Assembly: GCA_964016885.1 (NCBI GenBank)
Contig: OZ024740.1
Coordinates: 430,466,001-430,530,000 of the forward strand
Source of the DNA: Eledone cirrhosa
Taxonomy: Eukaryota
Direction: 5' to 3'
DNA: 64,000 bases
Numbering within the stretch: position 1 is the stretch's first letter; every line of letters starts with the position of its first letter. The position numbers were made by a program, and so were the translations under genes. Shown here one piece after another: positions 1 through 41,356 of the stretch. Under the pieces are notes generated by a model. The model was not told the origin of the DNA, did no database searches, and worked only from the letters and a program-made list of their open reading frames with translations.

Positions 1-2145
1 GCCTCAAGTGGGAAACCTCCCGTCCAAACCCATGCAAGCGTGGAAGATGTGGAACTGGGAGGTTTTTACTGTGTTACCTACACGGCCACATTACAGCGTG
101 GGTGTGTTTTTTTGTCGTGACACCTACACGACCTCATTTGTTTCAGGCTGGATGTTGTGGTACCAACATAACTTTACATTGAAAGGGGTGGGGGTGGTGG
201 GACGGGGGTGTATTTTGTTAGAGGTGCCTACTGACTGTAGTAGGTTTCACTTTGTACTTAGGTAAGGCGGGTCTTCTCTATTACTCTGTAGCGCCAAAGG
301 TCTCGGTCCAGTGACATTGTCTTGGAGAGGTGTAAGTGTGTGAGGTCGGAATTTATCAAGTCGTCCCAGGTTTTTCTGGGTCTGCCTACTCCGTGACTTC
401 CGTCTATTTTTATTGCCCTGCACTTTTTTATACAGCTGTCGTCTTTCATGCGCATCACGTGACCATACCAACGTAGTCTTCTCTCGAGTAAACAACATCT
501 GATCCCTCTTATTTCTAATTTTTCCCTTAGTTCGTTTCTGCTTTGCCGTTCACGTATATTACTATTGCACATCCAGTGGAGCATGCAAGCTTCGTTCCTC
601 TCCAGTCTGCATATATCCTCTGCACACAATGCCCAGGTCTCACTGCCATGCAACATTGCTGTTCGTATGCAGGCATCATACAGCCTGCCTTTCATTTTTA
701 GGGAGAACCCTTTAGCGGCTAATAGTGGTATAAGCTCTCTGAACTTTTTCCATCCAGTTCTGACTCTAGCTACTGTACTTTCAGAGCACCCTCCCCCACT
801 GCTGATTTTGTCACCCAGGTAATGGAAGCTGTCCACTATTTCTATAGAACCATCTGTGCAATGGAATGAGCTAGTATTCTGTGGGCACGTGCTGCTACTT
901 ATTGCACCAGAGCACCGGCCACATATAAAATCTATGTTCTTAGTTAGCTTACCTGTGATTCCACTACATTTTTTATGCACCCATACTTTGCATTTGGGAC
1001 ATAAAATGGAGTTTCTACCTACTCCATTCCTACACACTGAGCATGGCCATTTCCAGGATGGGACCGGCGCCCTATTTTCTTTCCTACAAACTAGAACTTT
1101 AGTCTTAGACAGGTTAATTTTAAGGCCTTTTGATTCTAGGCCATGCTTCCATGTTTGGAATTTCTTCTCTAGTTCGGCCATTGATTCAGCTATGAGCGTT
1201 AGATCATCTGCGTATAGGAGTTCCCATGAGCAGCCGGTCTTGAACTCCACTGTTATAGCCTGAAGGACAATAATAAATAGTAGAGGGCTAAGAATGGAGC
1301 CCTGATGAACACCAACTTTTACGCTAAACTCTTCACTATATTCGTTGTTAATTCTAACCTTACTGACTGTTTCTCTATACATGGCTTGTATAGCTCTCAC
1401 AAGCCATTCATCAACACCTAGTTTTCTAAGAGCCCACTAGATAATGGAACGGGGGACTCTGTCGAAGGCTTTCTCCAAGTCGACAAAAGCTAAGTATAGG
1501 GGTTTACTTTTAGCTAGGTACTTCTCCTGTAGTTGTCGTACAATGAAAAGAGCCTCTGTGGTACTTTTACCTGACACAAACCCGAACTGCATTTCATCTA
1601 GATCAATTCGCTCTCTGATTAGTTGCGCTATTACTTTTTCTGTGACCTTCATGACCTGGTCGATTAATTTAATGCCTCTATAGTTACTCCTATCTAGGGC
1701 ATCTCCTTTACCCTTGTAGGAGTTAATGATGATGCTGCTACACCAGTCCTTCGGAACAACCCCATTCTGTATGACTTGGTTTACTATCCAGGTGACCATG
1801 GTGTGTCCCACTGTTCCAGAAGCTTTCAGCATTTCAGCAACTATTTCCAACGGCCCAGCCGCCTTACCTGTCTTCATATCTTTTATTGCCTTACTTATTA
1901 TACTACCTTCGACTAACACTGCTGGTCCCTCTATTGGGTCGATGTGGAGGAGACTGTCTTTCTCCCATTTATTCTCCTCATTTAGTAGCCTTTAGTAGTG
2001 ACACTTCCAAGCTACCTTCTTATCAGCGTCAGTGATAGCAAGTACACCATCATCATTAAGGACACACTTCTCCCCGACAATATCACGGTTTTCCTTGACA
2101 CATTGCCTAGCAATCCTGAAGACCTCACGTTTTTGGTCCTCGCGT
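1..2145 (-). mobile_element. RTE-clade LINE, family B, 5'-truncated and inactivated; 3' tail lies outside the window
   Basis: ORFs 258-1400 and 1437-1919 encode RT (AFVDLEKAFD, HQGS, LLYADD), split by a Trp>stop near 1438 with another stop near 1992. The 3' UTR matches the copies at 34.2 kb and 42 kb. Confidence 0.93.
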
Positions 2146-3388
2146 ATATATGTAAAGATGGCTGACAAGTAATAACAAGTTGAGGGGGAGATGTGATCAT
2201 ATATATATGTAAAGATGGCTGACAAGTAATAACAAGTTGAGGGGAGATGTGATCATATATATATATGTAAAGATAGCTGACAAGTAATTACAAGTTGAGG
2301 GGAGATGTGATCATATATGTATATAAAGATGGCTGAAAAGTAATAACAAGTTGAGGGGAGATGTGATCATATATATATGTAAAGATGGCTGACAAGTAAT
2401 AACAAGTTGAGGGGAGATGTGATCATATATGTATATAAAGATGGCTGACAAGTAATAACAAGTTGAGGGGAGATGTGATCATATATATATATGTAAAGAT
2501 GGCTGACAAGTAATAACAAGTTGAGGGGAGATGTGATCATATATATATGTAAAGATGGCTGACAAGTAATTACAAGTTGAGGGGAGATGTGATCATATAT
2601 GTATATAAAGATGGCTGACAAGTAATAAGTTGAGGGGAGATGTGATCATATATATATATGTAAAGATGGCTGACAAGTAATAACAAGTTGAGGGGAGATG
2701 TGATCATATATATATGTAAAGATGGCTGACAAGTAATAACAAGTTGAGGGGAGATGTGATCATATATATATGTAAAGATGGCTGACAAGTAATAACAAGT
2801 TGAGGGGAGATGTGATCATATATATATGTAAAGATAGCTGACAAGTAATAACAAGTGGAGGGGAGATGTGATCATATATATATGTAAAGATGGCTGAAAA
2901 GTAATAACAAGTTGAGGGGAGATGTGATCATATATATATGTAAAGATGGCTGACAAGTAATTACAAGTTGAGGGGAGATGTGATCATATATATATATGTA
3001 AAGATGGCTGACAAGTAATAACAAGTTGAGGGGAGATGTGATCATATATATATGTAAAGATGGCTGACAAGTAATTACAAGTTGAGGGGAGATGTGATCA
3101 TATATATATATGTAAAGATGGCTGACAAGTAATAACAAGTTGAGGGGAGATGTGATCATATATATATGTAAAGATGGCTGACAAGTAATTACAAGTTGAG
3201 GGGAGATGTGATCATATATATATATGTAAAGATGGCTGACAAGTAATAACAAGTTGAGGGGAGATGTGATCATATATATATGTAAAGATGGCTGACAAGT
3301 AATTACAAGTTGAAGGGAGATCATATCTCCCCTCAACTTGTAATTACTTGTCAGCCATCTTTACATATATATATGATCACATTTCCTC
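2146..3388. repeat. Minisatellite, ~56-58 bp unit, ~20 copies, ending in one inverted unit
   Basis: Unit (AT)nGTAAAGATGGCTGACAAGTAATAACAAGTTGAGGGGAGATGTGATC; reverse-complement unit at ~3325-3388. Confidence 0.95.
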
Positions 3389-3422: not shown

Positions 3423-4003
<581 letters not shown>

Positions 4004-4034
4004 ACAATTATGTCAGATTCAATTTGTATATATG

Positions 4035-4475
4035 TGTAGATGAGAGACAGGAGGTGTTCTGCATTACAAGACAGTGGATCAGGGTGTTGGGGGAAAAGTG
4101 TGTTAGAAATGACTCCAGTGCACTTAACATCACTTGTTCTCAAAAGAAAGAGGCTTGGAAATGTTACTATGAGAGATTGATGAATGGGGGGAAGAGAGAC
4201 TACCGCCAACTTACCAGACAGAAGGACCGACCAACTATTGAAGTTGACAGTCTTAAGGTCAAAGAAGCAATCAAGGATATGAAGAATGGTAAAGCCACAA
4301 GAGCATCAGAGATAGTTGCCGAGATGCTAAAAGTGTTGGGAAAAGTAAAACGTGAACTGCATTGTCAATCAAGTAATACAAAATAGAGTCTACCGAATGA
4401 CTGGCGCAGGAGTACAATAATAAATTACTCTAAGAAGGAGCAACTGAAAACGAATAAAACTACTGGACCAAGTTG
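4035..4475 (+). mobile_element. Old degenerate RTE fragment
   Basis: Translates to RQEVFCITRQ...GEKCVRND...AWKCYYERLMN...AIKDMKNGKA...EIVAEMLK, homologous to the RTE ORF. Confidence 0.8.
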
Positions 4476-4884
4476 TTACTAAACATTTTAGTTCAATATC
4501 TCCCCAACCACTTATCCTGCCCATTTCTTCCTATAACCATAGAGTGCCTCACTTAACTTTTAGAATCCTCTAATGATATAGCAGAAAATGTCTAAAAACA
4601 GATTAGTTAATTCTAATGTTTATAGTATCTTTACTAATGGACAGAACCTTGTGAAAATTTACAGTAAACTAATAACTTTAATTTACAAGAATGTCTTGCT
4701 AATGCTGTTTCAAGTGGTACAGGATATCAAGAGTTAAACACAATTTTACGTGCTCCTATAATTGTATTCCCCTGTGACTCATTCCTTTCCAGTGTTTTCC
4801 TAAAGTAGACTGCTAAAGGTACCCAATCACCTAAATTCGTTGGACAAATGCTAAGCAACATTTGTTTCAACTCTTTATATCCTA

Positions 4885-5015
4885 CTGAGGTCAACTTTGC
4901 CTATTGTCCTTCTGAGATTGATAAAATGAAGTACCAGTGATGCACTGGGATTGATGTAATCAGCTGTCTCCTCCCCGAAAAATTGCTGGCCTTGTCCCTA
5001 AATCAGAAACCATTA
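4885..5015. mobile_element. Fragment of a second SINE-like family
   Basis: GAGGTCAACTTTGCC...GATAAAATGAAGTACCAGT...TGCTGGCCTTGT is the reverse complement of copies at 60010, 61620 and 61860; another copy lies at ~46810-46935. Confidence 0.6.
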
Positions 5016-5084
5016 TAATCCCTTTTAATGTCTGCTTTCCATCTAAATGGGTCAAATGATTTTGTTTTGTTCCAACATTTTCCT

Positions 5085-5250
5085 ATGTGACATAATCTAC
5101 CGCCACCACCTTAATACAACTCAGTCCAACTCTATCCTATGTAACATCACCTGCCACCCCACCTCAGTCCAACTCTGTGACATCACTTGCCACCCCACCT
5201 CAGTCCAACTCTATGTGACATCACCTGCCACCCCACCTCAGTCCAACTCT
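5085..5250. repeat. Short tandem repeat, ~36-40 bp x4
   Basis: TGTGACATCACCTGCCACCCCACCTCAGTCCAACTC repeated. Confidence 0.8.
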
Positions 5251-5294
5251 ACCAATATAAAATGAGGGATTAGTGTTTGTTGTATTTGTAAATG

Positions 5295-8200
5295 TTAACT
5301 ATTAGTCTTAATCTATGACACTTCATTAACTATTAGTCTTAATCTATGACACTTCATTAACTATTAGTCTTAATCTATGACACTTCATTAACTAGTAGTC
5401 TTAATCTATGACACTTCATTAACTATTAGTCTTAATCTATGACACTTCATTAACTATTAGTCTTAATCTATGACACTTCATTAACTAGTAGTCTTAATCT
5501 ATGACACTTCATTAACTATTAGTCTTAATCTATGACACTTCATTAACTAGTAGTCTTAATCTATGACATTTCATTAACTATTAGTCTTAATCTATGACAC
5601 TTCATTAACTATTAGTCTTAATCTATGACACTTCATTAACTATTAGTCTTAATCTATGACACTTCATTAACTATTAGTCTTAATCTATGACACTTCATTA
5701 ACTAGTAGTCTTAATCTATGACACTTCATTAACTAAGTCTTAATCTATGACACTTCATTAACTATTCGTCTTAATCTATGACACTTCATTAACTATTCGT
5801 CTTAATCTATGACACTTCATTAACTATTAGTCTTAATCTATGACACTTCATTAACTATTAGTCTTAATCTATGACACTTCATTAACTATTAGTCTTAATC
5901 TATGACACTTCATTAACTATTAGTCTTAATCTATGACACTTCATTAACTATTAGTCTTAATCTATGACACTTCATTAACTATTAGTCTTAATCTATGACA
6001 CTTCATTAACTAGTAGTCTTAATCTATGACACTTCATTAACTATTAGTCTTAATCTATGACACTTCATAAACTAGTAGTCTTAATCTATGACACTTCATT
6101 AACTAGTAGTCTTAATCTATGACACTTCATTAACTATTAGTCTTAATCTATGACACTTCATTAACTAGTAGTCTTAATCTATGACATTTCATTAACTAGT
6201 AGTCTTAATCTATGACACTTCATTAACTGGTAGTCTTAATCTATGACACTTCATTAACTAGTAGTCTTAATCTATGACACTTCATTAACTATTCGTCTTA
6301 ATCTATGACACTTCATTAACTATTAGTCTTAATCTATGACACTTCATTAACTATTCGTCTTAATCTATGACACTTCATTAACTATTAGTCTTAATCTATG
6401 ACACTTCATTAACTATTAGTCTTAATCTATGACACTTCATTAACTATTAGTCTTAATCTATGACACTTCATTAACTATTAGTCTTAATCTATGACACTTC
6501 ATTAACTATTAGTCTTAATCTATGACACTTCATTAACTATTAGTCTTAATCTATGACACTTCATTAACTAGTAGTCTTAATCTATGACACTTCATTAACT
6601 ATTAGTCTTAATCTATGACACTTCATTAACTATTAGTCTTAATCTATGACACTTCATTAACTATTAGTCTTAATCTATGACACTTCATTAACTAGTAGTC
6701 TTAATCTATGACACTTCATTAACTATTAGTCTTAATCTATGACACTTCATAAACTAGTAGTCTTAATCTATGACACTTCATTAACTAGTAGTCTTAATCT
6801 ATGACACATCATTAACTATTAGTCTTAATCTATGACACTTCATTAACTAGTAGTCTTAATCTATGACATTTCATTAACTAGTAGTCTTAATCTGACACTT
6901 CATTAACTAGTAGTCTTAATCTATGACACTTCATTAACTAGTAGTCTTAATCTATGACACTTCATTAACTATTCGTCTTAATCTATGACACTTCATTAAC
7001 TATTAGTCTTAATCTATGACACTTCATTAACTATTAGTCTTAATCTATGACACTTCATTAACTAGTAGTCTTAATCTATGACACTTCATTAACTATTAGT
7101 CTTAATCTATGACACTTCATTAACTATTAGTCTTAATCTATGACACTTCATTAACTATTAGTCTTAATCTATGACACTTCATTAACTAGTAGTCTTAATC
7201 TATGACACTTCATTAACTATTAGTCTTAATCTATGACACTTCATTAAATAGTAGTCTTAATCTATGACACTTCATTAACTATTAGTCTTAATCTATGACA
7301 CTTCATTAACTATTAGTCTTAATCTATGACACTTCATTAACTAGTAGTCTTAATCTATGACACTTCATTAACTATTCGTCTTAATCTATGACACTTCATT
7401 AACTATTAGTCTTAATCTATGACACTTCATTAACTATTAGTCTTAATCTATGACACTTCATTAACTATTAGTCTTAATCTATGACACTTTATTAACTAGT
7501 AGTCTTAATCTATGACACTTCATTGACTATTAGTCTTAATCTATGACACTTCATTAACTATTAGTCTTAATCTGACACTTCATTAACTATTAGTCTTAAT
7601 CTATGACACTTCATTAACTAGTAGTCTTAATCTATGACACTTCATTAACTAGTAGTCTTAATCTATGACATTTCATTAACTATTAGTCTTAATCTATGAC
7701 ACTTCATTAACTAGTAGTTTTAATCTATGACACTTCATTAACTATTAGTCTTAATCTATGACACTTCATTAACTATTAGTCTTAATCTATGACACTTCAT
7801 TAACTATTAGTCTTAATCTATGACACTTCATTAACTAGTAGTCTTAATCTATGACACTTCATTAACTATTAGTCTTAATCTATGACACTTCATTAACTAT
7901 TAGTCTTAATCTATGACACTTCATTAACTAGTAGTCTTAATCTATGACATTTCATTAACTATTAGTCTTAATCTATGACACTTCATTAACTAGTAGTTTT
8001 AATCTATGACACTTCATTAACTATTAGTCTTAATCTATGACACTTCATTAACTATTAGTCTTAATCTATGACACTTCATTAACTAGTAGTCTTAATCTAT
8101 GACATTTCATTAACTAGTAGTCTTAATCTATGACACTTCATTAACTATTAGTCTTAATCTATGACACTTCATTAACTATTAGTCTTAATCTATGACACTT

Positions 8201-11200
8201 CATTAACTAGTAGTCTTAATCTATGACATTTCATTAACTATTAGTCTTAATCTATGACACTTCATTAACTATTAGTCTTAATCTATGACACTTCATTAAC
8301 TATTAGTCTTAATCTATGACACTTCATTAACTAGTAGTCTTAATCTATGACATTTCATTAACTATTAGTCTTAATCTATGACACTTCATTAACTAGTAGT
8401 TTTAATCTATGACACTTCATTAACTATTAGTCTTAATCTATGACACTTCATTAACTATTAGTCTTAATCTATGACACTTCATTAACTAGTAGTCTTAATC
8501 TATGACATTTCATTAACTAGTAGTCTTAATCTATGACACTTCATTAACTATTAGTCTTAATCTATGACACTTCATTAACTAGTAGTCTTAATCTATGACA
8601 CTTCATTAACTATTAGTCTTAATCTATGACACTTCATTAACTAGTAGTCTTAATCTATGACACTTCATTAACTATTAGTCTTAATCTATGACACTTCATA
8701 AACTAGTAGTCTTAATCTATGACACTTCATTAACTAGTAGTCTTAATCTATGACACATCATTAACTATTAGTCTTAATCTATGACACTTCATTAACTAGT
8801 AGTCTTAATCTATGACATTTCATTAACTAGTAGTCTTAATCTGACACTTCATTAACTAGTAGTCTTAATCTATGACACTTCATTAACTAGTAGTCTTAAT
8901 CTATGACACTTCATTAACTATTCGTCTTAATCTATGACACTTCATTAACTATTAGTCTTAATCTATGACACTTCATTAACTATTAGTCTTAATCTATGAC
9001 ACTTCATTAACTAGTAGTCTTAATCTATGACACTTCATTAACTATTAGTCTTAATCTATGACACTTCATTAACTATTAGTCTTAATCTATGACACTTCAT
9101 TAACTATTAGTCTTAATCTATGACACTTCATTAACTAGTAGTCTTAATCTATGACACTTCATTAACTATTAGTCTTAATCTATGACACTTCATTAAATAG
9201 TAGTCTTAATCTATGACACTTCATTAACTATTAGTCTTAATCTATGACACTTCATTAACTATTAGTCTTAATCTATGACACTTCATTAACTAGTAGTCTT
9301 AATCTATGACACTTCATTAACTATTCGTCTCAATCTATGACACTTCATTAACTATTAGTCTTAATCTATGACACTTCATTAACTATTAGTCTTAATCTAT
9401 GACACTTCATTAACTATTAGTCTTAATCTATGACACTTTATTAACTAGTAGTCTTAATCTATGACACTTCATTGACTATTAGTCTTAATCTATGACACTT
9501 CATTAACTATTAGTCTTAATCTGACACTTCATTAACTATTAGTCTTAATCTATGACACTTCATTAACTAGTAGTCTTAATCTATGACACTTCATTAACTA
9601 GTAGTCTTAATCTATGACATTTCATTAACTATTAGTCTTAATCTATGACACTTCATTAACTAGTAGTTTTAATCTATGACACTTCATTAACTATTAGTCT
9701 TAATCTATGACACTTCATTAACTATTAGTCTTAATCTATGACACTTCATTAACTATTAGTCTTAATCTATGACACTTCATTAACTAGTAGTCTTAATCTA
9801 TGACACTTCATTAACTATTAGTCTTAATCTATGACACTTCATTAACTATTAGTCTTAATCTATGACACTTCATTAACTAGTAGTCTTAATCTATGACATT
9901 TCATTAACTATTAGTCTTAATCTATGACACTTCATTAACTAGTAGTTTTAATCTATGACACTTCATTAACTATTAGTCTTAATCTATGACACTTCATTAA
10001 CTATTAGTCTTAATCTATGACACTTCATTAACTAGTAGTCTTAATCTATGACATTTCATTAACTAGTAGTCTTAATCTATGACACTTCATTAACTATTAG
10101 TCTTAATCTATGACACTTCATTAACTATTAGTCTTAATCTATGACACTTCATTAACTAGTAGTCTTAATCTATGACATTTCATTAACTATTAGTCTTAAT
10201 CTATGACACTTCATTAACTATTAGTCTTAATCTATGACACTTCATTAACTATTAGTCTTAATCTATGACACTTCATTAACTAGTAGTCTTAATCTATGAC
10301 ATTTCATTAACTATTAGTCTTAATCTATGACACTTCATTAACTAGTAGTTTTAATCTATGACACTTCATTAACTATTAGTCTTAATCTATGACACTTCAT
10401 TAACTATTAGTCTTAATCTATGACACTTCATTAACTAGTAGTCTTAATCTATGACATTTCATTAACTAGTAGTCTTAATCTATGACACTTCATTAACTAT
10501 TAGTCTTAATCTATGACACTTCATTAACTAGTAGTCTTAATCTATGACACTTCATTAACTAGTAGTCTTAATCTATGACACTTCATTAACTAGTAGTCTT
10601 AATCTATGACACTTCATTAACTAGTAGTCTTAATCTATGACATTTCATTAACTATTAGTCTTAATCTATGACACTTCATTAACTAGTAGTCTTAATCTAT
10701 GACACTTCATTAACTAGTAGTCTTAATCTATGACACTTCATTAACTATTAGTCGTAATCTATGACACTTCATTAACTAGTAGTCTTAATCTATGACACTT
10801 CATTAACTATTAGTCTTAATCTATGACACTTCATTAACTAGTAGTTTTAATCTATGACACTTCATTAACTATTAGTCTTAATCTATGACACTTCATTAAC
10901 TATTAGTCTTAATCTATGACACTTCATTAACTAGTAGTCTTAATCTATGACATTTCATTAACTAGTAGTCTTAATCTATGACACTTCATTAACTATTAGT
11001 CTTAATCTATGACACTTCATTAACTAGTAGTCTTAATCTATGACACTTCATTAACTAGTAGTCTTAATCTGACACTTCATTAACTAGTAGTCTTAATCTA
11101 TGACATTTCATTAACTATTAGTCTTAATCTATGACACTTCATTAACTAGTAGTCTTAATCTATGACACTTCATAAACTAGTAGTCTTAATCTATGACATT

Positions 11201-13035
11201 TCATTAACTATTAGTCTTAATCTATGACACTTCATTAACTATTAGTCTTAATCTATGACACTTCATAAACTAGTAGTCTTAATCTATGACATTTCATTAA
11301 CTATTAGTCTTAATCTATGACACTTCATTAACTAGTAGTCTTAATCTATGACACTTCATTAACTAGTAGTCTTAATCTATGACATTTCATTAACTATTAG
11401 TCTTAATCTATGACACTTCATTAACTAGTAGTCTTAATCTATGACACTTCATAAACTAGTAGTCTTAATCTATGACATTTCATTAACTATTAGTCTTAAT
11501 CTATGACACTTCATTAACTATTAGTCTTAATCTATGACACTTCATTAACTAGTAGTCTTAATCTATGACACTTCATTAACTAGTAGTCTTAATCTATGAC
11601 ACTTCATTAACTATTAGTCTTAATCTATGACACTTCATTAACTATTAGTCTTAATCTATGACACTTCATTAACTAGTAGTCTTAATCTATGACATTTCAT
11701 TAACTATTAGTCTTAATCTATGACACTTCATTAACTAGTAGTTTTAATCTATGACACTTCATTAACTATTAGTCTTAATCTATGACACTTCATTAACTAT
11801 TAATCTTAATCTATGACACTTCATTAACTAGTAGTCTTAATCTATCACATTTCATTAACTAGTAGTCTTAATCTATGACACTTCATTAACTATTAGTCTT
11901 AATCTATGACACTTCATTAACTATTAGTCTTAATCTATGACACTTCATTAACTAGTAGTCTTAATCTATGACATTTCATTAACTATTAGTCTTAATCTAT
12001 GACACTTCATTAACTATTAGTCTTAATCTATGACACTTCATTAACTAGTAGTCTTAATCTATGACACTTCATTAACTATTAGTCTTAATCTATGACACTT
12101 CATTAACTATTAGTCTTAATCTATGACACTTCATTAACTATTAGTCTTAATCTATGACACTTCATTAACTAGTAGTCTTAATCTATGACATTTCATTAAC
12201 TATTAGTCTTAATCTATGACACTTCATTAACTAGTAGTTTTAATCTATGACACTTCATTAACTATTAGTCTTAATCTATGACACTTCATTAACTATTAGT
12301 CTTAATCTATGACACTTCATTAACTAGTAGTCTTAATCTATGACATTTCATTAACTAGTAGTCTTAATCTATGACACTTCATTAACTATTAGTCTTAATC
12401 TATGACACTTCATTAACTAGTAGTCTTAATCTATGACACTTCATTAACTAGTAGTCTTAATCTATGACACTTCATTAACTAGTAGTCTTAATCTATGACA
12501 CTTCATTAACTAGTAGTCTTAATCTATGACATTTCATTAACTATTAGTCTTAATCTATGACACTTCATTAACTAGTAGTCTTAATCTATGACACTTCATT
12601 AACTAGTAGTCTTAATCTATGACACTTCATTAACTATTAGTCTTAATCTATGACACTTCATTAACTATTAGTCTTAATCTATGACACTTCATTAACTAGT
12701 AGTCTTAATCTATGACATTTCATTAACTATTAGTCTTAATCTATGACACTTCATTAACTAGTAGTTTTAATCTATGACACTTCATTAACTATTAGTCTTA
12801 ATCTATGACACTTCATTAACTAGTAGTCTTAATCTATGACACTTCATAAACTAGTAGTCTTAATCTATGACATTTCATTAACTATTAGTCTTAATCTATG
12901 ACACTTCATTAACTATTAGTCTTAATCTATGACACTTCATAAACTAGTAGTCTTAATCTATGACATTTCATTAACTATTAGTCTTAATCTATGACACTTC
13001 ATTAACTAGTAGTCTTAATCTATGACACTTCATTA
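5295..13035. repeat. 31-bp satellite, ~250 copies, abutting the exon B acceptor
   Basis: Unit TTAACTA(T/G)TAGTCTTAATCTATGACACTTCA, highly homogeneous. Confidence 0.99.
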
Positions 13036-13038
13036 CAG

Positions 13039-13196
13039 GTTATGGCAAGACAGTGAGTCATGTGATAATTGGTCTAAAAACTGCAAAAGGAACAAAACAA
13101 CTAAAATTAGATCCATCCATCTTTGAGAGTTTACAAAAAGAAAAGGTTGAAGTCGGTGATGTGATCTACATTGAATCAAACAGTGGCGCTGTAAAA
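13039..13196 (+). CDS. RUVBL1: RUVBL1 exon B
   Basis: cattacAG|GT TAT GGC AAG. Encodes (G)[52 protein letters not shown]; donor GTAAG at 13197; phase fits exon A. Confidence 0.97.
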
Positions 13197-13211
13197 GTAA
13201 GCTGAATTTAA

Positions 13212-14667
13212 CCCTTTAGCATTCACATTGAATTGTCAAATGTCATGTTCATCTATTTGCATTATTTTCACTTAATTATACTCAAGAGGGTTATCAATTT
13301 TATTTGTTTGTAATTACTTTAATTTTCTATGTGCACACTTGAAATTTTGTCAGTAGATGTTTAAATAACTATAATTTACAATTATATATTTTTACCTGAT
13401 TTTTTTTGTTAAATTTGACTTTTATGGGCAAGTGAAATTAATTAACAGGTGTAAAAGTAATAACTTTATGGATAAACACAAAAATTTAAACTTTATCTGC
13501 CTTACCTGTTAGATTTGTTGCAAAAAAATCCAATAATGACCTAGATGCTGATTTCCATCAATTCTAGCAGTTTTCTGAACAGGTGAATTAATTAAAAATG
13601 CAGGTGTAATCAGTACACGGTTTTAGTCTTTCTCTACATTCCAGGCAAATATTTTCATTGAAAAAAATGTATAAAACCTTTTCACCGGTCAAAATAATAT
13701 TGGCAATGTACTCTGTAAAATTACGTAATAGAAAGTTCCCAATATATAAGTTTATACACACTTTTAAATTTTTCTGACAATATTTTAATTAATGGTCGTA
13801 CTTTGTACAGTGGGTCGTAATTTGATTCATTTCTACCAGGGGCATTTGAAGTATCAACCAGATGCAAATACTGGTTTAATTTAATGAATCTCGTTTTTGC
13901 CATAATACTAGATATATAAGGGTCACCAAACCTTATATCAGTACTCCAATAATTCCACAGTCGTGGAAATTGTTTAATACCAAACATAATATTTATGGTA
14001 AAAAACGCTTTCATTTCGGCAGAATCTGTCGGACAACATAACAGATCGGGTTTTCCGATATTAGAAATTTGTTGTTGTGCATAGCGATTTGCCACAACTT
14101 CGAAGAAAGATTGTGGTAAAAATAAAAAATAATAATCCAGTGCTTTAGCATCGGGTGGTAATGTGTGTTGTGGTCCAATATTTTCAGTAAAATCCGAAAC
14201 ATGTATCGATGTTGTTTCTTTCAACCACGTTGCTATTTTTTCAATGGTGTCAGTCAAATCTTCTCTTTCACTTTCAAAGTAACTATCATCATTATCAGAT
14301 ATATCAGAAATAAATATATCTGATTCGTTTGAAGATAAATCACTGATATTATCTTCTGTTTCCTTTTGATCTCGAATGTCGTCGGACGTAAAACCTTCAA
14401 ATTCGTTGTCGCTACTTTCGGAAGCCATGTTACACTTTCAACGTTAAAAACACGTGTTATCGCAAGTTCTTTAACTATACTAAGAGTTAATTTTCGCGCG
14501 TAAGGGCTTTATCTCGCAGTAATCTCGAATTGACGAGATTTCGATGATGTCAATGTTTATTTTTAGAAGGAAATCTCCGTGTGGTATTAAATGTCGGTTT
14601 TTGTCGGTTTGAATAAATGAAAGGGGACATAATTTTGTCGGTTTTTGTCGCTTTGAACGCTAAAGGG
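13212..14667 (-). mobile_element. Non-autonomous, internally deleted piggyBac element
   Basis: TTAA at 13208-13211 and 14668-14671; TIR CCCTTTAGC(A/G)TTCA; 235-aa ORF (13721-14428) is the N-terminal part of the 558-aa transposase. Confidence 0.95.
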
Positions 14668-16191: not shown

Positions 16192-16341
16192 AGACAAGGA
16201 AGATCTGATAGTTATGCAACAGAGTTTGATCTTGAAGCTGAAGAATATGTCCCTTTACCTAAAGGAGATGTACACAAGAAGAAAGAGGTGATTCAGGATG
16301 TAACACTGCATGATTTAGACACAGCTAATGCACGGCCACAG
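16192..16341 (+). CDS. RUVBL1: RUVBL1 exon C
   Basis: ttgttgtAG|AGACAAGGA. Encodes [50 protein letters not shown]; donor GTAAG; 150 nt. Confidence 0.97.
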
Positions 16342-17250: not shown

Positions 17251-20200
17251 CCTGCTGTATTAGCGATAAATTTTCGAGGGTTTCTCTTAGTAGTTTTTTT
17301 CATGACGTTATTATTGTTAATTTTACTGATGTAGTATTAACTTATTAACTTGGATATTTACCATGCGGTATTCTAATCCTATTGTATCTCTCTCAGTTAT
17401 TTACCATGCGACCCTCAGTTCCTACCCCCCCCCCCTCTCTATGCACTTCTTTAAGGCTTACTACCCTGTCTTTAACCTAATTCATTCAATCTGAAAATAT
17501 TGAAGAGATAAGATACTTTCCCATTCTTCTCTGCTAAAATGTATCACTAGAGCTGATTCCAATTATTCCAGCCATCCATCTAATCTACGAAGGTATTTTA
17601 GCCTACATATTGTCGTTAATATTATGATGTTCCCTGCTGTATTAGCGTTAAATTTTCCCTGCTGTATTAGCGATAAATTTTCGAGGGTTTCTCTTAGTAG
17701 TTTTTTCATGACGTTATTATTGTTAATTTTACTGATGTAGTATTAACTTGGATATTTACCATGCGACCCTCTTAGTAGTTTTTTCATGACGTTATTATTG
17801 TTAATTTTACTGATGTAGTATTAACTTGGATATTTACCATGCGACCCTCTTAGTAGTTTTTTCATGACGTTATTATTGTTAATTTTACTGATGTAGTATT
17901 AACTTGGATATTTACCATGCGACCCTCAGTTCCTACCTCACAGTTTCCCTCCCCCCCCCACCCCCACACACCACCATAGTCTATTCGACCAATCAAACCT
18001 AGCATGCCATTTCCACTGCTGCTGCTACTACCTGCCTAACTAACTCTCTCCTCCTCTGGCGCATCCCAACACACCCTGCCATTACCCCACCACCACTGTT
18101 CTTCTAGCCCTCAATTTTCCCACCGTTATGGATGGATGAGCTGGGAATACACGAGCAACTCTGAATCAATAGATGAAATATGAATCTGCGAGCTACCAAG
18201 CACCCACGTGAAGCGCCAACCCAGAGACCCTCCCCTACGAGTGTCGACAAATGCCCAAAACTCCGAGTTGGTACCATCAATGTAGGCTCAATGAAAGGAA
18301 GAGCAGGAGAAATCGTAGAAATGCTAGAGCGAAAGGAAGTTGATGTATGCTGTGTGCAAGAGACTAGATGGAGAGGAGGGTCTGCTAGAGTCCTTGTAGG
18401 AAAAAGCCAGTGCTACAAATTTTTCTGGGTGGGAAAAGACGATGGGATGGGTGGTGTAGGTATACTATTAGCTGACAAGTGGGTAGATAAAGTAATCTCA
18501 GTGTACAGGGTAAATGCAAGAATCATTAAACTCAGACTAGTCCTGAATAAGACAATTACCACAATAATATCAGCTTACGCACCCCAATCGGGGCTGCCAG
18601 ACGAACTTAAGGATAGGTTTTACGAGTCCCTAATACACACTACTGCTCTAACAGACGACAAGGACTTCCTAATCATTGCAGGAGATTTTAACGGACACGT
18701 AGGTAAACACTGCGACGGCTTCAATAGAGTACATGGAGGCCATGGAGTTGGCACAAGGAATGAGGAAGGATTCAGACTTCTAGAATTCTGCGACGCCAAT
18801 GACATGTCGATATGTAACACAAACTTTAAAAAACCCGACAACCACCTGATCACCTATAGATCAGGGGAGCACTCTAGTCAGTTAGATTTTATCCTCATCA
18901 GAGGACGTGACAGATGGACGGTCGTAAACACAAAAGCCTTCCCTAGTGAGGAATGTACATCCCAACATAGCTTAGTTGTCAGCGACCTCACAGTCAGAAC
19001 TAGACGAGCCCTGAAACAGAGGCCAACCTGGAGAAGAAAGATCTGGAAGCTGAAAGTCCCCTCAACCAGTAACAGATTTAAAGATATTTTACTCAACGCC
19101 TACGACAGTAAAGAAGAACAGATAGAGACATTTAACGTAGAAGAGAACTGGGAGTTCCTAAAAAATAACTTACTAGAGGCGACGGATGAGGTTTGTGGCT
19201 GGAGTAAGACCTCAAGCAGGAGGAGAGTGACTTGGTGGTGGAACAATAAGGTAGATGAAGCAGTCAAGGCCAAGAGACAGGCATGGAAAGAATGGAAGAA
19301 CGGGGGGAGCAGGGTACATTACATAGAGACCAAGAGGGAAGCTAGGCGACGAGTATACTTAGCTAGGAGGGAAGCAGAGGATAGAAAATTCAAGCATGTT
19401 TTACAACGTGAGGACCAGAAACAGGAGGTATTCAAGATTGCGAGGCAGTGTGTCAGAGATAGTTGTGATGTCATTGGAGAGAAGTGTATCCGGAATGATA
19501 AAGGTGAGCTTGCCCTCACAAGTGCTGAGAAGAAAGATGCATGGAAGAGTCATTATGATAGATTACTAAATGAGGAGAATGCATGGGAAGAAGAGACCCT
19601 ACCCCACTTAGACCCTATAGAGGGACCAGCAGTACAAGTCAGCGGCAGCGTAGTAAGTAAGGCAATCAGAGATATGAAGATAGGGAAGGCAACCGGTCCA
19701 TCGGGTATAGCTGCCGAGATGCTGAAGGCATCTGGGTCTGTAGGTCACACTATAACCACACGTATCGTTAACCAGGTAATACTAGAGGGGGCCATACCAA
19801 AAGATTGGTGCAGTAGCATCATTGTCAACTGCTACAAAGGTAAAGGCGATGCACTAGATAGAGGAAACTATAGAGGTATAAAGTTGATGGACCAGGTCAT
19901 GAAAGTAACAGAAAGAGTTATAGCACAGCTGATTAGGGACCGGGTGAATATAGACGAGATGCAATTTGGGTTTGTACCAGGGAAAGGCACCACTGATGCC
20001 CTCTTCCTTGTGAGGCAATTACAGGAAAAGTACCTAGCTAAAAGTAAGCCACTCTACTTGGCATTTGTCGACCTTGAGAAAGCCTTTGACAGAGTTCCAC
20101 GTGCAGTAATCTGGTGGGCTCTTAGAAAACTAGGAGTAGATGAATGGCTTGTGAAAGCGGTACAAGCCATGTATAGGGGAGCAGTCAGCAAAGTTAGGAT

Positions 20201-21610
20201 TGGCAATGAGTATAGCGAGGAATTTAGCGTACAGGTTGGGGTCCACCAGGTCTCTGTTCTTAGCCCTCTCCTGTTCATCATAGTCCTGCAGGCAATAACG
20301 GAGGAGTTTAAGACCGGATGCCCATGGGAACTCCTGTATGCTGATGACCTCGCACTCATAGCTGAATCTATGGTAGAACTAGAGAATAAATTCCAAACCT
20401 GGAAGCAGGGACTAGAGAGAAAGGGCCTCAAAGTCAACATGACAAAGACTAAGGTCCTTGTAAGTAGACGAGAAAACAGAACCCAGATCCCCTCAGGGAA
20501 ATGGCCTTGCTCAGTATGTAGGAAAGGTGTAGGTAGGAACTCCATTCTCTGCCCCAAATGCAAACAATGGGTACACAAGAGATGTAGCGGGATCTCAGGA
20601 AGCTTAATTAAGAATGTAGGATTCACATGCAGCAGCTGTGCTGAAACAGCAAGCAAACAGCCACAGGAAACAAGTACCACCAATCTCTGGGAGGGCCCTG
20701 TAGAAACAGTAGACAGCTTCTGCTACCTAGGTGACCGAATTAGCAACGGAGGTGGGTGCTCAGAAAGTACAATAACTAGGGTAAGAACGGGATGGAAGAA
20801 GTTTAGGGAACTACTACCACTGCTAGCTGCAAAAGGCTTCTCCCTCAGAATGAAAGGCAGACTGTATGATGCGTGTATCCGAACAGCGATGTTGCATGGT
20901 AGTGAGACCTGGGCGCTGAAGGTGGAAGACTTACGTAGATTAGAGAGAAACGAAGCCTGCATGCTCCGATGGATGTGTAACAGTAATATACGTGAACGAC
21001 AAAGCATAAAGGAATTGAGAGAGAGACTGAGCATAAGAGGAATCAAATGCTGCGTGCAGGAGAGGCGGTTACGCTGGTATGGACATGTGATGCGTATGAA
21101 GGATGACAGCTGCATAAAAAGGTGCAGAGCACGAGAAGTTGATGGAAACCGCGGAGTGGGGAGACCCAAGATGACTTGGGATGAGGTGATAAAAGCCGAC
21201 CTTACCCAACTACACCTCTCAAAGTCAATGACACACGACCGTGACTTCTGGCGTCACACAGTAATACAGGGTACCCGACCTCCCATGGGTACATGCTGAA
21301 GCATATAAACAATATGCCCCCCCCCCCCCACCCCACCGCAAGGTGGCCGTGGAGGTGCCACGGCAAAAAAGCACCCAGCCCACACTGTAAAGTGGACGTG
21401 TAGGCGCCACGAAAAAGCACCCAGCACTCACTGTAAATGTGGTTGGTGTTAGGAAGGGCATCCAGCTGTAGAAATCAAGCCAGATCAGTTCCTGTATGAG
21501 CAAGGCATGGTCAGCCGACCAGACACTGCCCACAACAGGACAACCCGTCTAACCCATGCTAGCGTGGAAGAACGGACGTAAAACGGTGATGATGATGATG
21601 ATGATGATGA
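17251..21610 (+). mobile_element. Apparently full-length RTE-clade LINE, family A
   Basis: 1039-aa ORF, 3' UTR and (GAT)n tail ending ~21610. Candidate TSD AACTTTC at 17244-17250 and 21610-21616; the 5' boundary is uncertain and could be ~17935. Confidence 0.85.
18180..21299 (+). CDS. RTE LINE polyprotein: APE endonuclease + reverse transcriptase with a PHD-like insert
   Basis: APE motifs GTINVG, CCVQETRW, SAYAPQ, AGDFNGH, QLDFIL, SQHSLV; RT motifs NYRGIKL, QFGF, AFVDLEKAFD, LLYADD, FCYLG; RTE C-terminus RLRWYGHV..GRPK.TW. Uninterrupted. Confidence 0.95.
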   Translation: MNLRATKHPREAPTQRPSPTSVDKCPKLRVGTINVGSMKGRAGEIVEMLERKEVDVCCVQETRWRGGSARVLVGKSQCYKFFWVGKDDGMGGVGILLADKWVDKVISVYRVNARIIKLRLVLNKTITTIISAYAPQSGLPDELKDRFYESLIHTTALTDDKDFLIIAGDFNGHVGKHCDGFNRVHGGHGVGTRNEEGFRLLEFCDANDMSICNTNFKKPDNHLITYRSGEHSSQLDFILIRGRDRWTVVNTKAFPSEECTSQHSLVVSDLTVRTRRALKQRPTWRRKIWKLKVPSTSNRFKDILLNAYDSKEEQIETFNVEENWEFLKNNLLEATDEVCGWSKTSSRRRVTWWWNNKVDEAVKAKRQAWKEWKNGGSRVHYIETKREARRRVYLARREAEDRKFKHVLQREDQKQEVFKIARQCVRDSCDVIGEKCIRNDKGELALTSAEKKDAWKSHYDRLLNEENAWEEETLPHLDPIEGPAVQVSGSVVSKAIRDMKIGKATGPSGIAAEMLKASGSVGHTITTRIVNQVILEGAIPKDWCSSIIVNCYKGKGDALDRGNYRGIKLMDQVMKVTERVIAQLIRDRVNIDEMQFGFVPGKGTTDALFLVRQLQEKYLAKSKPLYLAFVDLEKAFDRVPRAVIWWALRKLGVDEWLVKAVQAMYRGAVSKVRIGNEYSEEFSVQVGVHQVSVLSPLLFIIVLQAITEEFKTGCPWELLYADDLALIAESMVELENKFQTWKQGLERKGLKVNMTKTKVLVSRRENRTQIPSGKWPCSVCRKGVGRNSILCPKCKQWVHKRCSGISGSLIKNVGFTCSSCAETASKQPQETSTTNLWEGPVETVDSFCYLGDRISNGGGCSESTITRVRTGWKKFRELLPLLAAKGFSLRMKGRLYDACIRTAMLHGSETWALKVEDLRRLERNEACMLRWMCNSNIRERQSIKELRERLSIRGIKCCVQERRLRWYGHVMRMKDDSCIKRCRAREVDGNRGVGRPKMTWDEVIKADLTQLHLSKSMTHDRDFWRHTVIQGTRPPMGTC

Positions 21611-24034: not shown

Positions 24035-27000
24035 AGTTATTATGGATGTAGAGTATTGTAAAGTTATACTAGATGTAGACTATTGTAAAGTTATTATAGA
24101 TGTAGAGTATTGTAAAGTTATAATAGATGTAGAGTATTGTAAAGTTATATTAGATGTAGACTATTGTAAAGTTATACTAGATGTAGACTATTGTAAAGTT
24201 ATTCTAGATGTAGAGTATTGTAAAGTTATTCTAGATGTAGAGTATTGTAAAGTTATATTAGATGTAGACTATTGTAAAGTTATACTAGATGTAGACTATT
24301 GTAAAGTTATTCTAGATGTAGAGTATTGTAAAGTTATTCTAGATGTAGAGTATTGTAAAGTTATTCTAGATGTAGAGTATTGTCAAGTTATTATAGATGT
24401 AGAGTATTGTAAAGTTATTCTAGATGTAGAGTATTGTCAAGTTATTATAGATGTAGAGTATTGTAAAGTTATTCTAGATGTAGAGTATTGTCAAGTTATT
24501 ATAGATGTAGAGTATTGTAAAGTTATTATAGATGTAGAGTATTGTAAAGTTATTATAGATGTAGAGTATTGTAAAGTTATTATAGATGTAGAGTATTGTA
24601 AAGTTATTCTAGATGTAGAGTATTGTAAAGTTATTCTAGATGTAGAGTATTGTAAAGTTATTCTAGATGTAGAGTATTGTAAAGTTATTCTAGATGTAGA
24701 GTATTGTCAAGTTATCATAGATGTAGAGTATTGTAAAGTTATACTAGATGTAGAGTATTGTAAAGTTATTCTAGATGTAGAGTATTGTCAAGTTATTATA
24801 GATGTAGAGTATTGTAAAGTTATTCTAGATGTAGAGTATTGTCAAGTTATTATAGATGTAGAGTATTGTAGAGTTATTCTAGATGTAGAGTATTGTAAAG
24901 TTATACTAGATGTAGAGTATTGTAAAGTTATTCTAGATGTAGAGTATTGTAAAGTTATTCTAGATGTAGAGTATTGTAAAGTTATTCTAGATGTAGAATA
25001 TTGTAAAGTTATTATAGATGTAGAGTATTGTAAAGTTATTATAGATGTAGAGTAGTGTAAAGTTATTCTAGATGTAGAGTATTGTAAAGTTATTCTAGAT
25101 GTAGAGTATTGTAAAGTTATTCTAGATGTAGAGTATTGTAAAGTTATACTAGATGTAGAGTATTGTAGTTATTCTAGATGTAGAGTATTGTAAAGTTATT
25201 ATAGATGTAGACTATTGTAGTTATACTAGATGTAGAGTATTGTAAAGTTATACTAGATGTAGAGTATTGTAGTTATTCTAGATGTAGAGTATTGTAGTTA
25301 TTCTAGATGTAGAGTATTGTAAAGTTATACTCGATGTAGAGTATTGTAAAGTTATTATAGATGTAGAGTATTGTAAAGTTATTCTAGATGTAGAGTATTG
25401 TAAAGTTATTCTAGATGTAGAGTATTGTCAAGTTATCATAGATGTAGAGTATTGTAAAGTTATACTAGATGTAGAGTATTGTAAAGTTATTCTAGATGTA
25501 GAGTATTGTAAAGTTATTATAGATGTAGAGTATTGTAAAGTTATACTAGATGTAGAGTATTGTAAAGTTATTCTAGATGTAGAGTATTGTCAAGTTATTA
25601 TAGATGTAGAGTATTGTAAAGTTATTCTAGATGTAGAGTATTGTCAAGTTATTATAGATGTAGAGTATTGTCAAGTTATTCTAGATGTAGAGTATTGTAA
25701 AGTTATACTAGATGTAGAGTATTGTAAAGTTATTCTAGATGTAGAATATTGTAAAGTTATTCTAGATGTAGAATATTGTAAAGTTATTATAGATGTAGAG
25801 TATTGTAAAGTTATTATAGATGTAGAGTATTGTAAAGTTATTCTAGATGTAGAGTATTGTAAAGTTATACTAGATGTAGAGTATTGTAAAGTTATTCTAG
25901 ATGTAGAGTATTGTAAAGTTATTCTAGATGTAGAGTATTGTAAAGTTATTCTAGATATAGAGTATTGTAAAGTTATTATAGATGTAGACTATTGTAGTTA
26001 TACTAGATGTAGAGTATTGTAAAGTTATACTAGATGTAGAGTATTGTAGTTATTCTAGATGTAGAGTATTGTAAAGTTATTATAGATGTAGACTATTGTA
26101 GTTATACTAGATGTAGAGTATTGTAAAGTTATACTAGATGTAGAGTATTGTAGTTATTCTAGATGTAGAGTATTGTAAAGTTATTATAGATGTAGACTAT
26201 TGTAGTTATACTAGATGTAGAGTATTGTAGTTATTCTAGATGTAGAGTATTGTAAAGTTATACTAGATGTAGAGTATTGTAGTTATTCTAGATGTAGAGT
26301 ATTGTAGTTATTCTAGATGTAGAGTATTGTAAAGTTATTCTAGATGTAGAGTATTGTAAAGTTATACTCGATGTAGAGTATTGTAAAGTTATTATAGATG
26401 TAGAGTATTGTAAAGTTATTCTAGATGTAGAGTATTGTAAAGTTATTCTAGATGTAGAGTATTGTCAAGTTATCATAGATGTAGAGTATTGTAAAGTTAT
26501 ACTAGATGTAGAGTATTGTAAAGTTATTCTAGATGTAGAGTATTGTCAAGTTATTATAGATGTAGAGTATTGTCAAGTTATTCTAGATGTAGAGTATTGT
26601 CAAGTTATTCTAGATGTAGAGTATTGTCAAGTTATTCTAGATGTAGAGTATTGTAAAGTTATTCTAGATGTAGAATATTGTAAAGTTATACTAGATGTAG
26701 AGTATTGTAAAGTTATTATAGATGTAGACTATTGTAGTTATACTAGATGTAGAGTATTGTAAAGTTATACTAGATGTAGAGTATTGTAGTTATTCTAGAT
26801 GTAGAGTATTGTAAAGTTATTATAGATGTAGACTATTGTAGTTATACTAGATGTAGAGTATTGTAAAGTTATACTAGATGTAGAGTATTGTAGTTATTCT
26901 AGATGTAGAGTATTGTAGTTATTCTAGATGTAGAGTATTGTAAAGTTATTCTAGATGTAGAGTATTGTAAAGTTATACTAGATGTAGAGTATTGTAAAGT

Positions 27001-30000
27001 TATTATAGATGTAGAGTATTGTAAAGTTATTCTAGATGTAGAGTATTGTAAAGTTATAATAGATGTAGAGTATTGTAAAGTTATATTAGATGTAGACTAT
27101 TGTAAAGTTATACTAGATGTAGAGTATTGTAAAGTTATTCTAGATGTAGAGTATTGTAAAGTTATTCTAGATGTAGAGTATTGTCAAGTTATTATAGATG
27201 TAGAGTATTGTAAAGTTATTCTAGATGTAGAGTATTGTAGTTATACTAGATGTAGAGTATTGTAGTTATACTAGATGTAGAGTATTGTAGTTATTCTAGA
27301 TGTAGAGTATTGTAAAGTTATTCTAGATGTAGACTAGTGTAAAGTTATACTAGATGTAGAGTATTGTCAAGTTATACTAGATGAAGAGTATTGTAAAGTT
27401 ATTCTAGATGTAGACTAGTGTAAAGTTATTCTAGATGTAGACTAGTGTAAAGTTATTCTAGATGTAGACTAGTGTAAAGTTATTCTAGATGTAGAGTATT
27501 GTAAAGTTATTCTAGATGTAGACTATTGTAGTTATACTAGATGTAGAGTATTGTAAAGTTATTCTAGATGTAGAGTAGTGTAAAGTTATTCTAGATGTAG
27601 AGTATTGTAAAGTTATTATAGATGTAGACTAGTGTAAAGTTATTCTAGATGTAGAGTATTGTAAAGTTATTCTAGATGTAGAGTATTGTAAAGTTATTCT
27701 AGATGCAGAGTATTGTAAAGTTATTATAGATGTAGACTATTGTAGTTATACTAGATGTAGAGTATTGTAAATTTATTATAGATGTAGACTATTGTAGTTA
27801 TTCTAGATGTAGAGTATTGTAGTTATTCTAGATGTAGAGTATTGTAAAGTTATTATAGATATAGACTATTGTAGTTATACTAGATGTAGAGTATTGTAAA
27901 GTTATACTAGATGTAGAGTATTGTAGTTATTCTAGATGTAGAGTATTGTAGTTATTCTAGATGTAGAGTATTGTAAAGTTATTCTAGATGTAGAGTATTG
28001 TAAAGTTATTCTAGATGTAGAGTATTGTAAAGTTATTCTAGATGTAGAGTATTGTCAAGTTATTATAGATGTAGAGTATTGTAAAGTTATTCTAGATGTA
28101 GAGTATTGTCAAGTTATTCTAGATGTAGAGTATTGTAAAGTTATTCTAGATGTAGAGTATTGTAAAGTTATTCTAGATGTAGAGTATTGTAAAGTTATTC
28201 TAGATGTAGAGTATTGTAAAGTTATTCTAGATGTAGAGTATTGTCAAGTTATCATAGATGTAGAGTATTGTAAAGTTATTCTAGATGTAGAGTATTGTAA
28301 AGTTATTCTAGATGTAGAGTATTGTCAAGTTATTATAGATGTAGAGTATTGTCAAGTTATTATAGATGTAGAGTATTGTCAAGTTATTATAGATGTAGAG
28401 TATTGTAAAGTTATTCTAGATGTAGAGTATTGTAAAGTTATTCTAGATGTAGAGTATTGTAAAGTTATACTAGATGTAGAGTATTGTAAAGTTATTATAG
28501 ATGTAGAGTATTGTAAAGTTATACTAGATGTAGAGTATTGTAAAGTTATTATAGATGTAGAGTATTGTAAAGTTGTACTAGATGTAGAGTATTGTAAAGT
28601 TATTCTAGATGTAGAATATTGTAAAGTTATACTAGATGTAGAGTATTGTAAAGTTATTCTAGATGTAGAGTATTGTAAAGTTATTCTAGATGTAGAGTAG
28701 TGTAAAGTTATTCTAGATGTAGAGTATTGTAAAGTTATTATAGGTGTAGACTAGTGTAAAGTTATTCTAGATGTAGAGTATTGTAAAGTTATACTAGATG
28801 TAGAGTATTGTAAAGTTATTCTAGATGTAGAGTATTGTAAAGTTATTCTAGATGTAGAGTATTGTAAAGTTATTCTAGATGTAGAGTATTGTAAAGTTAT
28901 TCTAGATGTAGAGTATTGTAAAGTTATACTAGATGTAGAGTATTGTAAAGTTATTCTAGATGTAGAGTATTGTAAAGTTATTCTAGATGTAGAGTATTGT
29001 AAAGTTATTCTAGATGTAGAGTATTGTAAAGTTATTCTAGATGTAGAGTATTATAAAGTTATTATAGATGTAGACTATTGTAGTTATACTAGATGTAGAG
29101 TATTGTAAAGTTAGACTAGATGTAGAGTATTGTAGTTATTCTAGATGTAGAGTATTGTAAAGTTATTATAGATGTAGACTATTGTAGTTATACTAGATGT
29201 AGAGTATTGTAGTTATTCTAGATGTAGAGTATTGTAAAGTTATTATAGATATAGACTATTGTAGTTATACTAGATGTAGAGTATTGTAAAGTTATACTAG
29301 ATGTAGAGTATTGTAGTTATTCTAGATGTAGAGTATTGTAGTTATTCTAGATGTAGAGTATTGTAGTTATTCTAGATGTAGAGTATTGTAAAGTTATTCT
29401 AGATGTAGAGTATTGTAAAGTTATACTAGATGTAGAGTATTGTCAAGTTATCATAGATGTAGAGTATTGTCAAGTTATCATAGATGTAGAGTATTGTAAA
29501 GTTATACTAGATGTAGAGTATTATAAAGTTATTCTAGATGTAGAGTATTGTCAAGTTATTATAGATGTAGAGTATTGTCAAGTTATTATAGATGTAGAGT
29601 ATTGTAACGTTATTATAGATGTAGAGTATTGTAAAGTTATTCTAGATGTAGAGTATTGTAAAGTTATTATAGATGTAGAGTATTGTAAAGTTATTCTAGA
29701 TGTAGAGTATTGTAAAGTTATTCTAGATGTAGAGTATTGTCAAGTTATCATAGATGTAGAGTATTGTCAAGTTATCATAGATGTAGAGTATTGTAAAGTT
29801 ACACTAGATGTAGAGTACTATAAAGTTATTCTAGATGTAGAGTATTGTCAAGTTATTATAGATGTAGAGTATTGTCAAGTTATTATAGATGTAGAGTATT
29901 GTAAAGTTATTCTAGATGTAGAGTATTGTAAAGTTATACTAGATGTAGAGTATTGTAAAGTTATTCTAGATGTAGAATATTGTAAAGTTATACTAGATGT

Positions 30001-41344: not shown

Positions 41345-41356
41345 GATGGACATTAA

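Follow-up and report, generated by a model that had tools for sequence, protein, structure and literature searches.

The window, by which we mean the whole stretch of 64,000 nt that was analysed (assembly positions 430466001-430530000, in an assembly totalling 2,995,841,428 bases, or 3.0 Gb), contains eight of the ten coding exons of a conserved gene. The frame at 3423-3639 encodes a protein sequence that matches ruvB-like 1 of Octopus bimaculoides, O. sinensis and Argonauta hians at 100% identity, and the octopod ruvB-like 1 proteins that match this exon at 100% bear PF06068, the TIP49 domain. A tblastn search with the O. bimaculoides protein (P0003) placed ten coding exons, two upstream of the window and eight within it, and the encoded protein is 95-96% identical overall to octopod RUVBL1 proteins, which places the organism among octopod-like cephalopods. 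By these protein matches and the ten mapped exons the gene is RUVBL1 (pontin, TIP49 family), which bears out the initial annotation of a conserved housekeeping gene. When the genome was searched with exon 3, the matches were the gene itself (100%) and, on a different contig, a paralogue at 47%; there was no retrocopy. A protein search with exon 7 gave no 100% match; a 98% Logan fragment (P0122) begins past the junction.

Intron 3 of RUVBL1 is 9.4 kb long and separates exon 3 from exon 4 (Table 1). The amino acid sequence across this junction, PMGG/YGKT (slashes mark boundaries throughout), is identical in O. bimaculoides (P0003), O. sinensis (P0004), Argonauta (P0005) and Acanthosepion (P0041). 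The end of exon 4 had originally been placed one base off; the exon ends at 13196, its donor GT starts at 13197, and this donor, GTAAGC, follows the intron 3 acceptor at a distance of 158 nt.

Table 1. Features of RUVBL1 intron 3 and its flanking exons, in window coordinates.
Feature	Position	Strand	Basis
RUVBL1 coding exon 3, aa 77-149, ends ...ATGGGAG	3423..3639	+	tblastn of P0003, 100% identity
Intron 3 donor GTAAAT	3640..3645	+	sequence; 3639-13039 junction in mRNA contig
5' portion of intron 3, unique sequence with TE-like fragments; 36-38-bp repeat at 5137-5251	3640..5294	+	
31-bp minisatellite, 250 units, locus-specific	5295..13035	+	TRF, segmentation, genome-wide pattern scan
Candidate branch site ATTAAC, A13005, 33 nt from G13038 (TTAAC at -34)	13001..13006	+	motif scan; AG-bypass rule (PMC1431707)
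Last full unit (13002-13032) and in-phase TTA (13033-13035); repeat copy abutting the acceptor	13002..13035	+	sequence, segmentation
Last decoy AGs of the array, ctAGtAG	13008..13012	+	motif scan
AG-free zone, 24 nt; pyrimidine tract weak, with 60% Y and 40% T at -4..-23	13013..13036	+	motif scan
Candidate branch site TTAAT, A13018, 20 nt from G13038 (TTAAT at -21)	13015..13019	+	motif scan
Acceptor CAG of intron 3	13036..13038	+	sequence; used in mRNA contig
RUVBL1 coding exon 4, aa 149-201	13039..13196	+	tblastn 100%; 1680-nt contig, 0 differences

Use of the intron 3 acceptor was seen in a sequencing run of unrecorded kind from another sample of the same organism (run X4), which comprises only 88 million letters. 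A contig of 1680 nt assembled from this run, with a depth of 71.5, aligns to positions 13037-13196 with 0 differences. Its letters before 13037 are those of window positions 3608-3637, at the end of exon 3, and its letters after 13196 are those of positions 16192-16221, at the start of exon 5. The alignment begins at 13037 because the last two bases of exon 3 (AG) are the same as the last two of intron 3, and the junction 3639/13039 is exact in the contig. As a run of 88 million letters cannot give 71-fold cover of a 3-Gb genome, the contig is spliced RNA. The acceptor at 13036-13038 is therefore used in mRNA, as observed in this one assembled contig, and the claim that splicing uses the acceptor behind the array is correct in that the contig joins 3639 to 13039. 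Assembled contigs drop rare forms, and hence the contig shows use of this site and says nothing on the silence of the decoy sites described below. Intron 3 thus ends in a YAG that is used in mRNA, as a U2-type 3' splice site does.

The tandem repeat upstream of this acceptor was analysed by TRF, which describes it as a single array (5295-13035) with a period of 31, 250.1 copies, 96% matches and 0% indels. Segmentation yielded 250 units belonging to 21 variants, the spacing being 31 nt in 243 cases and 29 nt in six. Two main variants, TAACTATTAG.. and TAACTAGTAG.., account for 126 and 52 units, respectively. At the boundary with exon 4 the sequence reads ...ctagtagtcttaatctatgacacttcatta/cag/GTTATGG, and the CAG at 13036-13038 provides the only non-repeat letters between array and exon. 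In agreement with the initial annotation, the intron thus contains a 7.7-kb array of about 250 copies of a 31-bp unit that runs up to the CAG in front of an exon. Each copy had also been said to hold a decoy TAG, and indeed TAG is present in each unit, with 347 AGs in the array as a whole. CAG does not occur in the array (0 matches), and the sole CAGG is the one at 13036, at the acceptor. Open reading frames of at least 35 aa are absent from the array on either strand, and when the last five units were folded as RNA the predicted structure was unexceptional (z -0.58). The array contains, at window positions of about 7214-11050, two copies of a block of some 63 units (1949 bp), which indicates that the array grew by multi-unit steps (unequal exchange).

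Long arrays are difficult to assemble, and the copy number given here is that of the assembly, not of long reads. The flush junction with the acceptor, or the length of the array, could in principle be an assembly artefact. However, short-read contigs of the organism on positions 12950-13065 have a summed depth of 730, compared with about 8-17 for single-copy sequence (depth does not equal copy number), and a contig from a relative, described below, spans the last 29 nt of the intron into exon 4. We therefore consider an artefact highly improbable.

The signals for splicing normally lie no more than about 40 nt from the exon. According to the available text of PMC1431707, the AG that first follows the branch point serves as the 3' splice site, and AGs located less than 12-15 nt from the branch are bypassed; the typical branch distance is 19-37 nt in the part of PMC10078293 that is available. 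As the 7.7 kb upstream of the CAG are all repeat, the first-AG rule together with the requirement for a branch point 18-40 nt upstream would imply that both the branch site and the pyrimidine tract are repeat-derived. The statement that no unique sequence is left for 3' splice signals agrees with the finding that only the CAG is non-repeat; that branch and tract lie in the last unit or units is what we infer from the two rules.

Two candidate branch sites are present in this region. The first is the one proposed initially, a YTNAY motif whose A (13018) is 20 nt away from the AG, inside an AG-free zone estimated at about 25 nt: the motif scan found TTAAT at 13015-13019 and an AG-free zone of 24 nt. 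A yUnAy motif is thus present 18-40 nt upstream of the acceptor with no usable AG between the two, as in U2-type introns. The second candidate is ATTAAC, and the nearest AGs upstream of the acceptor, which start at 13008 and 13011, lie 3-7 nt past its A13005. When paired by hand with the conserved branch-binding sequence of U2, ATTAAC pairs slightly better. A13005 is a candidate that would fit as the branch at least as well as A13018. The tract itself has 60% Y and 40% T, and the seven other acceptors scored in the window range from 45 to 85% Y, acceptor strength being judged here from base counts.

The occurrence of a YTNAY motif is by itself unsurprising, because the introns of this locus have 0.025 such motifs per nt, and of 27-nt intron stretches taken at random 43% contain one. 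The specific motif TTAAT, with its second A at -18..-40, precedes four of the nine RUVBL1 acceptors (13039, 16192, 23262 and 53047), whereas 5% would be expected from the background of 0.0023/nt (P 0.0007). When the acceptor of intron 3 is set aside, TTAAT is found at -18..-40 before three of the other eight, again versus 5% expected (P 0.006). These counts suggest that TTAAT is a favoured branch motif in the RUVBL1 gene of this organism, and they lend the TTAAT candidate of intron 3 some independent support.

The distribution of the repeat was determined over the whole assembly. Allowing up to 2 mismatches, a 24-mer of the unit gave 245 forward matches in 2,995,841,428 bases, all of them (245/245) inside this array, and 0 reverse-strand matches in the whole assembly. 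A query of four units identified one candidate region in the genome, and all 72 matches were within this array. The repeat hence consists of head-to-tail units of 31 bp, within the 10-100 bp class, at one locus only, and is a locus-specific minisatellite. Since it is absent elsewhere in the assembly it was most likely born in place, and the array most likely constitutes a young, locally born minisatellite.

Mobile-element reading frames and tandem arrays are abundant in the window, and it could be supposed that the array was inserted beside the acceptor, either as a dispersed satellite or as a mobile element's tandem tail. We regard such an insertion as most improbable: there is no copy elsewhere in 3.0 Gb, reverse-strand copies are lacking, and the left flank has no likeness to the unit, its score being reached by 125 of 300 shuffles. 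No decayed units were detected in the flanks of the array. Nor did the unit resemble exon 4, intron 4 or the 36-38-bp repeat at 5137-5251 more closely than shuffled sequences did.

Sequence from a relative provides information on the age of the intron's 3' end. A contig from run X5 (organism B) covers about 13010-13201; this range was derived from bin depth (8.56 versus 17.7) and from-end values, and the contig was seen in one of two mappings. In that mapping X5 gave no cover on 12950-13009, and runs X6 and X7 gave none on exon 4; in the other, where filtering means that missing cover is no proof of absence, X5, X6 and X7 all lacked cover on 12950-13205. Compared with exon 4 it has seven differences, all of them synonymous (7/52 third positions). 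For the last 29 nt of intron 3 no difference is listed, with the proviso that differences near contig ends may go unlisted, and the chance of no change is P 0.015 for 29 nt and 0.07 for 18 nt. The contig is weakly consistent with a unit-like 3' end that is older than the split of the two lineages and conserved. It also fits the prediction that the unit corresponds to the ancestral 3' splice region, at the same P of 0.015-0.07. A metagenome pattern scan with the start of exon 4 identified seven contigs of distant eukaryotes (L019-L025), all of which have an intron at the same codon position. Their identity to exon 4 is 82-128/159, in one case 105/135, and their acceptors have ordinary pyrimidine tracts. 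None of the seven is close enough to be a sister species. Judged from these contigs, the position of intron 3 is old. Mapping of run contigs over intron 4 was dominated by copies of mobile elements.

Other repeats and mobile elements are present at the locus. Long frames of mobile elements lie in introns at 18177-21299 (+), 258-1991 (-) and 13721-14437 (-); a 1040-aa frame and several fragments resemble reverse transcriptases by eye, and a frame of 238 aa is located in intron 4. A 27-bp minisatellite occupies two blocks of RUVBL1 intron 6, 24035-33345 (349 copies) and 40625-41345 (27 copies). It is locus-specific, with 304/304 genome matches in the window, and 32 nt separate the end of its second block from the acceptor of exon 7. 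At 54654-54788, 3.7 copies of a 37-bp repeat stop 20 nt short of the last exon's acceptor; the last, partial copy contains CTTAT at -27 and may supply a branch site too. Intron 2 contains 21 copies of a 56-bp repeat (2145-3321), which are followed by an inverted partial copy and stop 101 nt short of the exon 3 acceptor. Some 3.2-3.8 kb further upstream in this intron, at -1632 to -1039, there is a related array with a 56-bp unit. Downstream of RUVBL1, about 70 copies of a 23-bp repeat (62453-64000) continue past the end of the window.

The positions of arrays relative to acceptors were compared with random placement, over the whole gene (window coordinates -7000 to 55000). Arrays end within 32 nt of the acceptor in three of the nine RUVBL1 introns, against 0.19-0.26 expected (P about 0.001-0.002, with thresholds chosen post hoc). 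They end within 175 nt of it in five of the nine, against 1.0-1.3 expected, again with post hoc thresholds.

Together, these results make the following reading of the locus likely. The final 7.7 kb of RUVBL1 intron 3, to within 3 nt of the acceptor that is used, consist of a locus-unique 31-bp array. Its last copy or last two copies likely carry the branch site and the tract, and tandem duplication of this segment likely gave rise to the array in place; the segment would be the ancestral 3' segment of the intron. U2 and SF1 would bind TTAAT (A13018) or ATTAAC (A13005) of the final unit, the next usable AG after the branch would be the CAG/G at 13038, and the 249 upstream copies would be passengers. 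The TAG/T decoys would lose to the sole CAG/G. No other AG would have a real exon behind it, here one with its GTAAGC donor 158 nt downstream, and exon definition would decide. The weak tract would probably make the intron AG-dependent, so that AG quality would count early. The geometry from branch to AG (about 22 nt) is in every unit that of the true site, and the presumed loss of the decoys 27-30 nt and 58 nt upstream is argued solely from CAG/G versus TAG/T. The array is best seen as a young VNTR that would be near-neutral or slightly costly; it would be tolerated since every copy restores identical 3' signals at the exon's edge.

Compatible with this main reading is the view that the decoy TAGs are used appreciably. 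Splicing from 3639 into the array would then lead to premature stops and decay, and so to a lower or tuned output of RUVBL1, and the array would be a costly or regulatory VNTR. Every unit provides a branch motif, a spacer of about 22 nt and a YAG. The exons starting at the last decoys would measure just 185-216 nt, so that their size is no bar, and the lack of an open reading frame of at least 35 aa on either strand means that any inclusion of array sequence would stop translation. However, the sole spliced contig uses 13039, the decoys read TAG/T and the true site CAG/G, and RUVBL1 is essential in organisms wherever it has been tested. On balance we consider appreciable decoy use unlikely.

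The array had also been thought to consist of some 250 functional branch-point modules acting as a U2/SF1 binding array. It could then be a binding platform for SF1 and U2 snRNP, as a sponge or a local concentrator, in the manner of the UACUAAC repeats of Gomafu, which in the available text of PMC3116199 bind SF1 when in tandem and slow splicing in vitro. A single pre-mRNA would indeed present 249 TTAAT and 238 TTAAC motifs. These are weak YTNAY motifs, however: the array has 0 TACTAAC and 0 ACTAAC, and its five CTRAY motifs correspond to 0.65/kb, below the 4.4/kb of ordinary intron. The absence of UACUAAC and the small number of CTRAY make a strong SF1 sponge unlikely. Moreover, the array lies in an intron that is removed and not in a stable nuclear RNA, it is present at one locus only, and its fold is unexceptional. 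A role as a binding platform is therefore very unlikely.

A further suggestion was that the intron is removed stepwise by recursive splicing inside the array, and both the length of the intron (9.4 kb) and the 347 AGs would offer room for this. Ratchet points consist of juxtaposed acceptor and donor sites, as stated in the available parts of PMC8605326 and 10.1101/006163. None of the 347 AGs (5295-13036) has GT directly after it (0 AGGT), which refutes recursive splicing at zero-length ratchet sites. In addition, the contexts of GT in the array, TAGTCTTA and TAGTAGTC, are poor donors. We hold stepwise removal within the array to be extremely improbable.

A broader reading takes the 250-fold iteration of a full 3' splice module (branch motif, spacer and YAG), of which the last one is picked, together with the three of nine introns that have acceptor-attached locus-specific arrays. 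On this view, minisatellites in octopod introns would be seeded by a process tied to the 3' splice region, or selection would favour branch sites in many copies, and the choice among hundreds of equivalent acceptors would be strict and anchored to the exon. We consider this quite unlikely.

If our main reading holds, the locus constitutes a natural experiment on the choice of 3' splice sites, in which 347 decoy AGs with identical upstream signals compete with one CAG/G in an essential gene. RUVBL1 intron 3 could then show how far exon definition and the bases at -3 and +1 suffice. The locus also calls for caution in gene prediction and repeat masking, as masking the array would delete every 3' splice signal of a real intron.

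Introns often contain tandem repeats, and F7 and NARS2 provide known examples of repeats at splice sites. The Y-linked introns of Drosophila hold megabase arrays of simple satellites in testis genes, and these satellites are not known to supply 3' splice signals. Gigantic introns that contain satellite DNA are described for Drosophila Y-linked genes in the available part of 10.1101/493254, and the RUVBL1 array resembles them in that satellite arrays are transcribed within introns. As far as the available text of PMC3116199 goes, Gomafu/MIAT is similar in having many branch-point-like motifs in series on one RNA; it differs in that it carries the optimal UACUAAC in a stable nuclear RNA, whereas the RUVBL1 array is intronic and devoid of UACUAAC. 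The AG-exclusion and first-AG rules, as given in the available part of PMC1431707, are followed at RUVBL1, where a 24-nt AG-free zone is present and the AGs 3-7 nt after ATTAAC would be bypassed. The cases of AG exclusion described there have long AG-free zones and distant branch points, unlike RUVBL1, whose zone is short because each unit has an AG.

Two known repeats at splice sites may be compared with the arrangement found here. A search of the literature available as open full text gave no kilobase-scale minisatellite that lies flush to an acceptor and itself provides the branch point, and no 3' counterpart of F7. In NARS2, a tandem repeat (spl-TR) between the branch site and the 3' splice site alters splicing in cis (PMC10078293, available part). 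As at RUVBL1, the repeat lies in the zone from branch point to acceptor. According to that text, however, NARS2 has a short repeat that shifts the branch site further away, whereas the units of RUVBL1 each bring a branch-like motif, and the spacing is therefore constant at any copy number.

In human F7, the first element of an intron 7 VNTR with 37-bp units extends across the donor of exon 7 (PMC1557585, available part). As in RUVBL1, a minisatellite lies right at a splice site of a protein-coding gene, and look-alikes in a row adjoin the authentic site; those of F7 are silent according to the text available. The two loci differ in that F7 involves the 5' splice site and a small number of copies, its pseudo-sites matching the true one exactly, and RUVBL1 the intron's 3' end and 250 copies. 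Furthermore, the RUVBL1 array does not span the exon boundary as the F7 element does in that text, but stops 3 nt short of the exon, and its decoys read TAG/T against the CAG/G of the true site. By this comparison, the F7 intron 7 VNTR is the nearest described case, and the RUVBL1 locus would be a far larger variant of it on the 3' side, related in arrangement but not identical.
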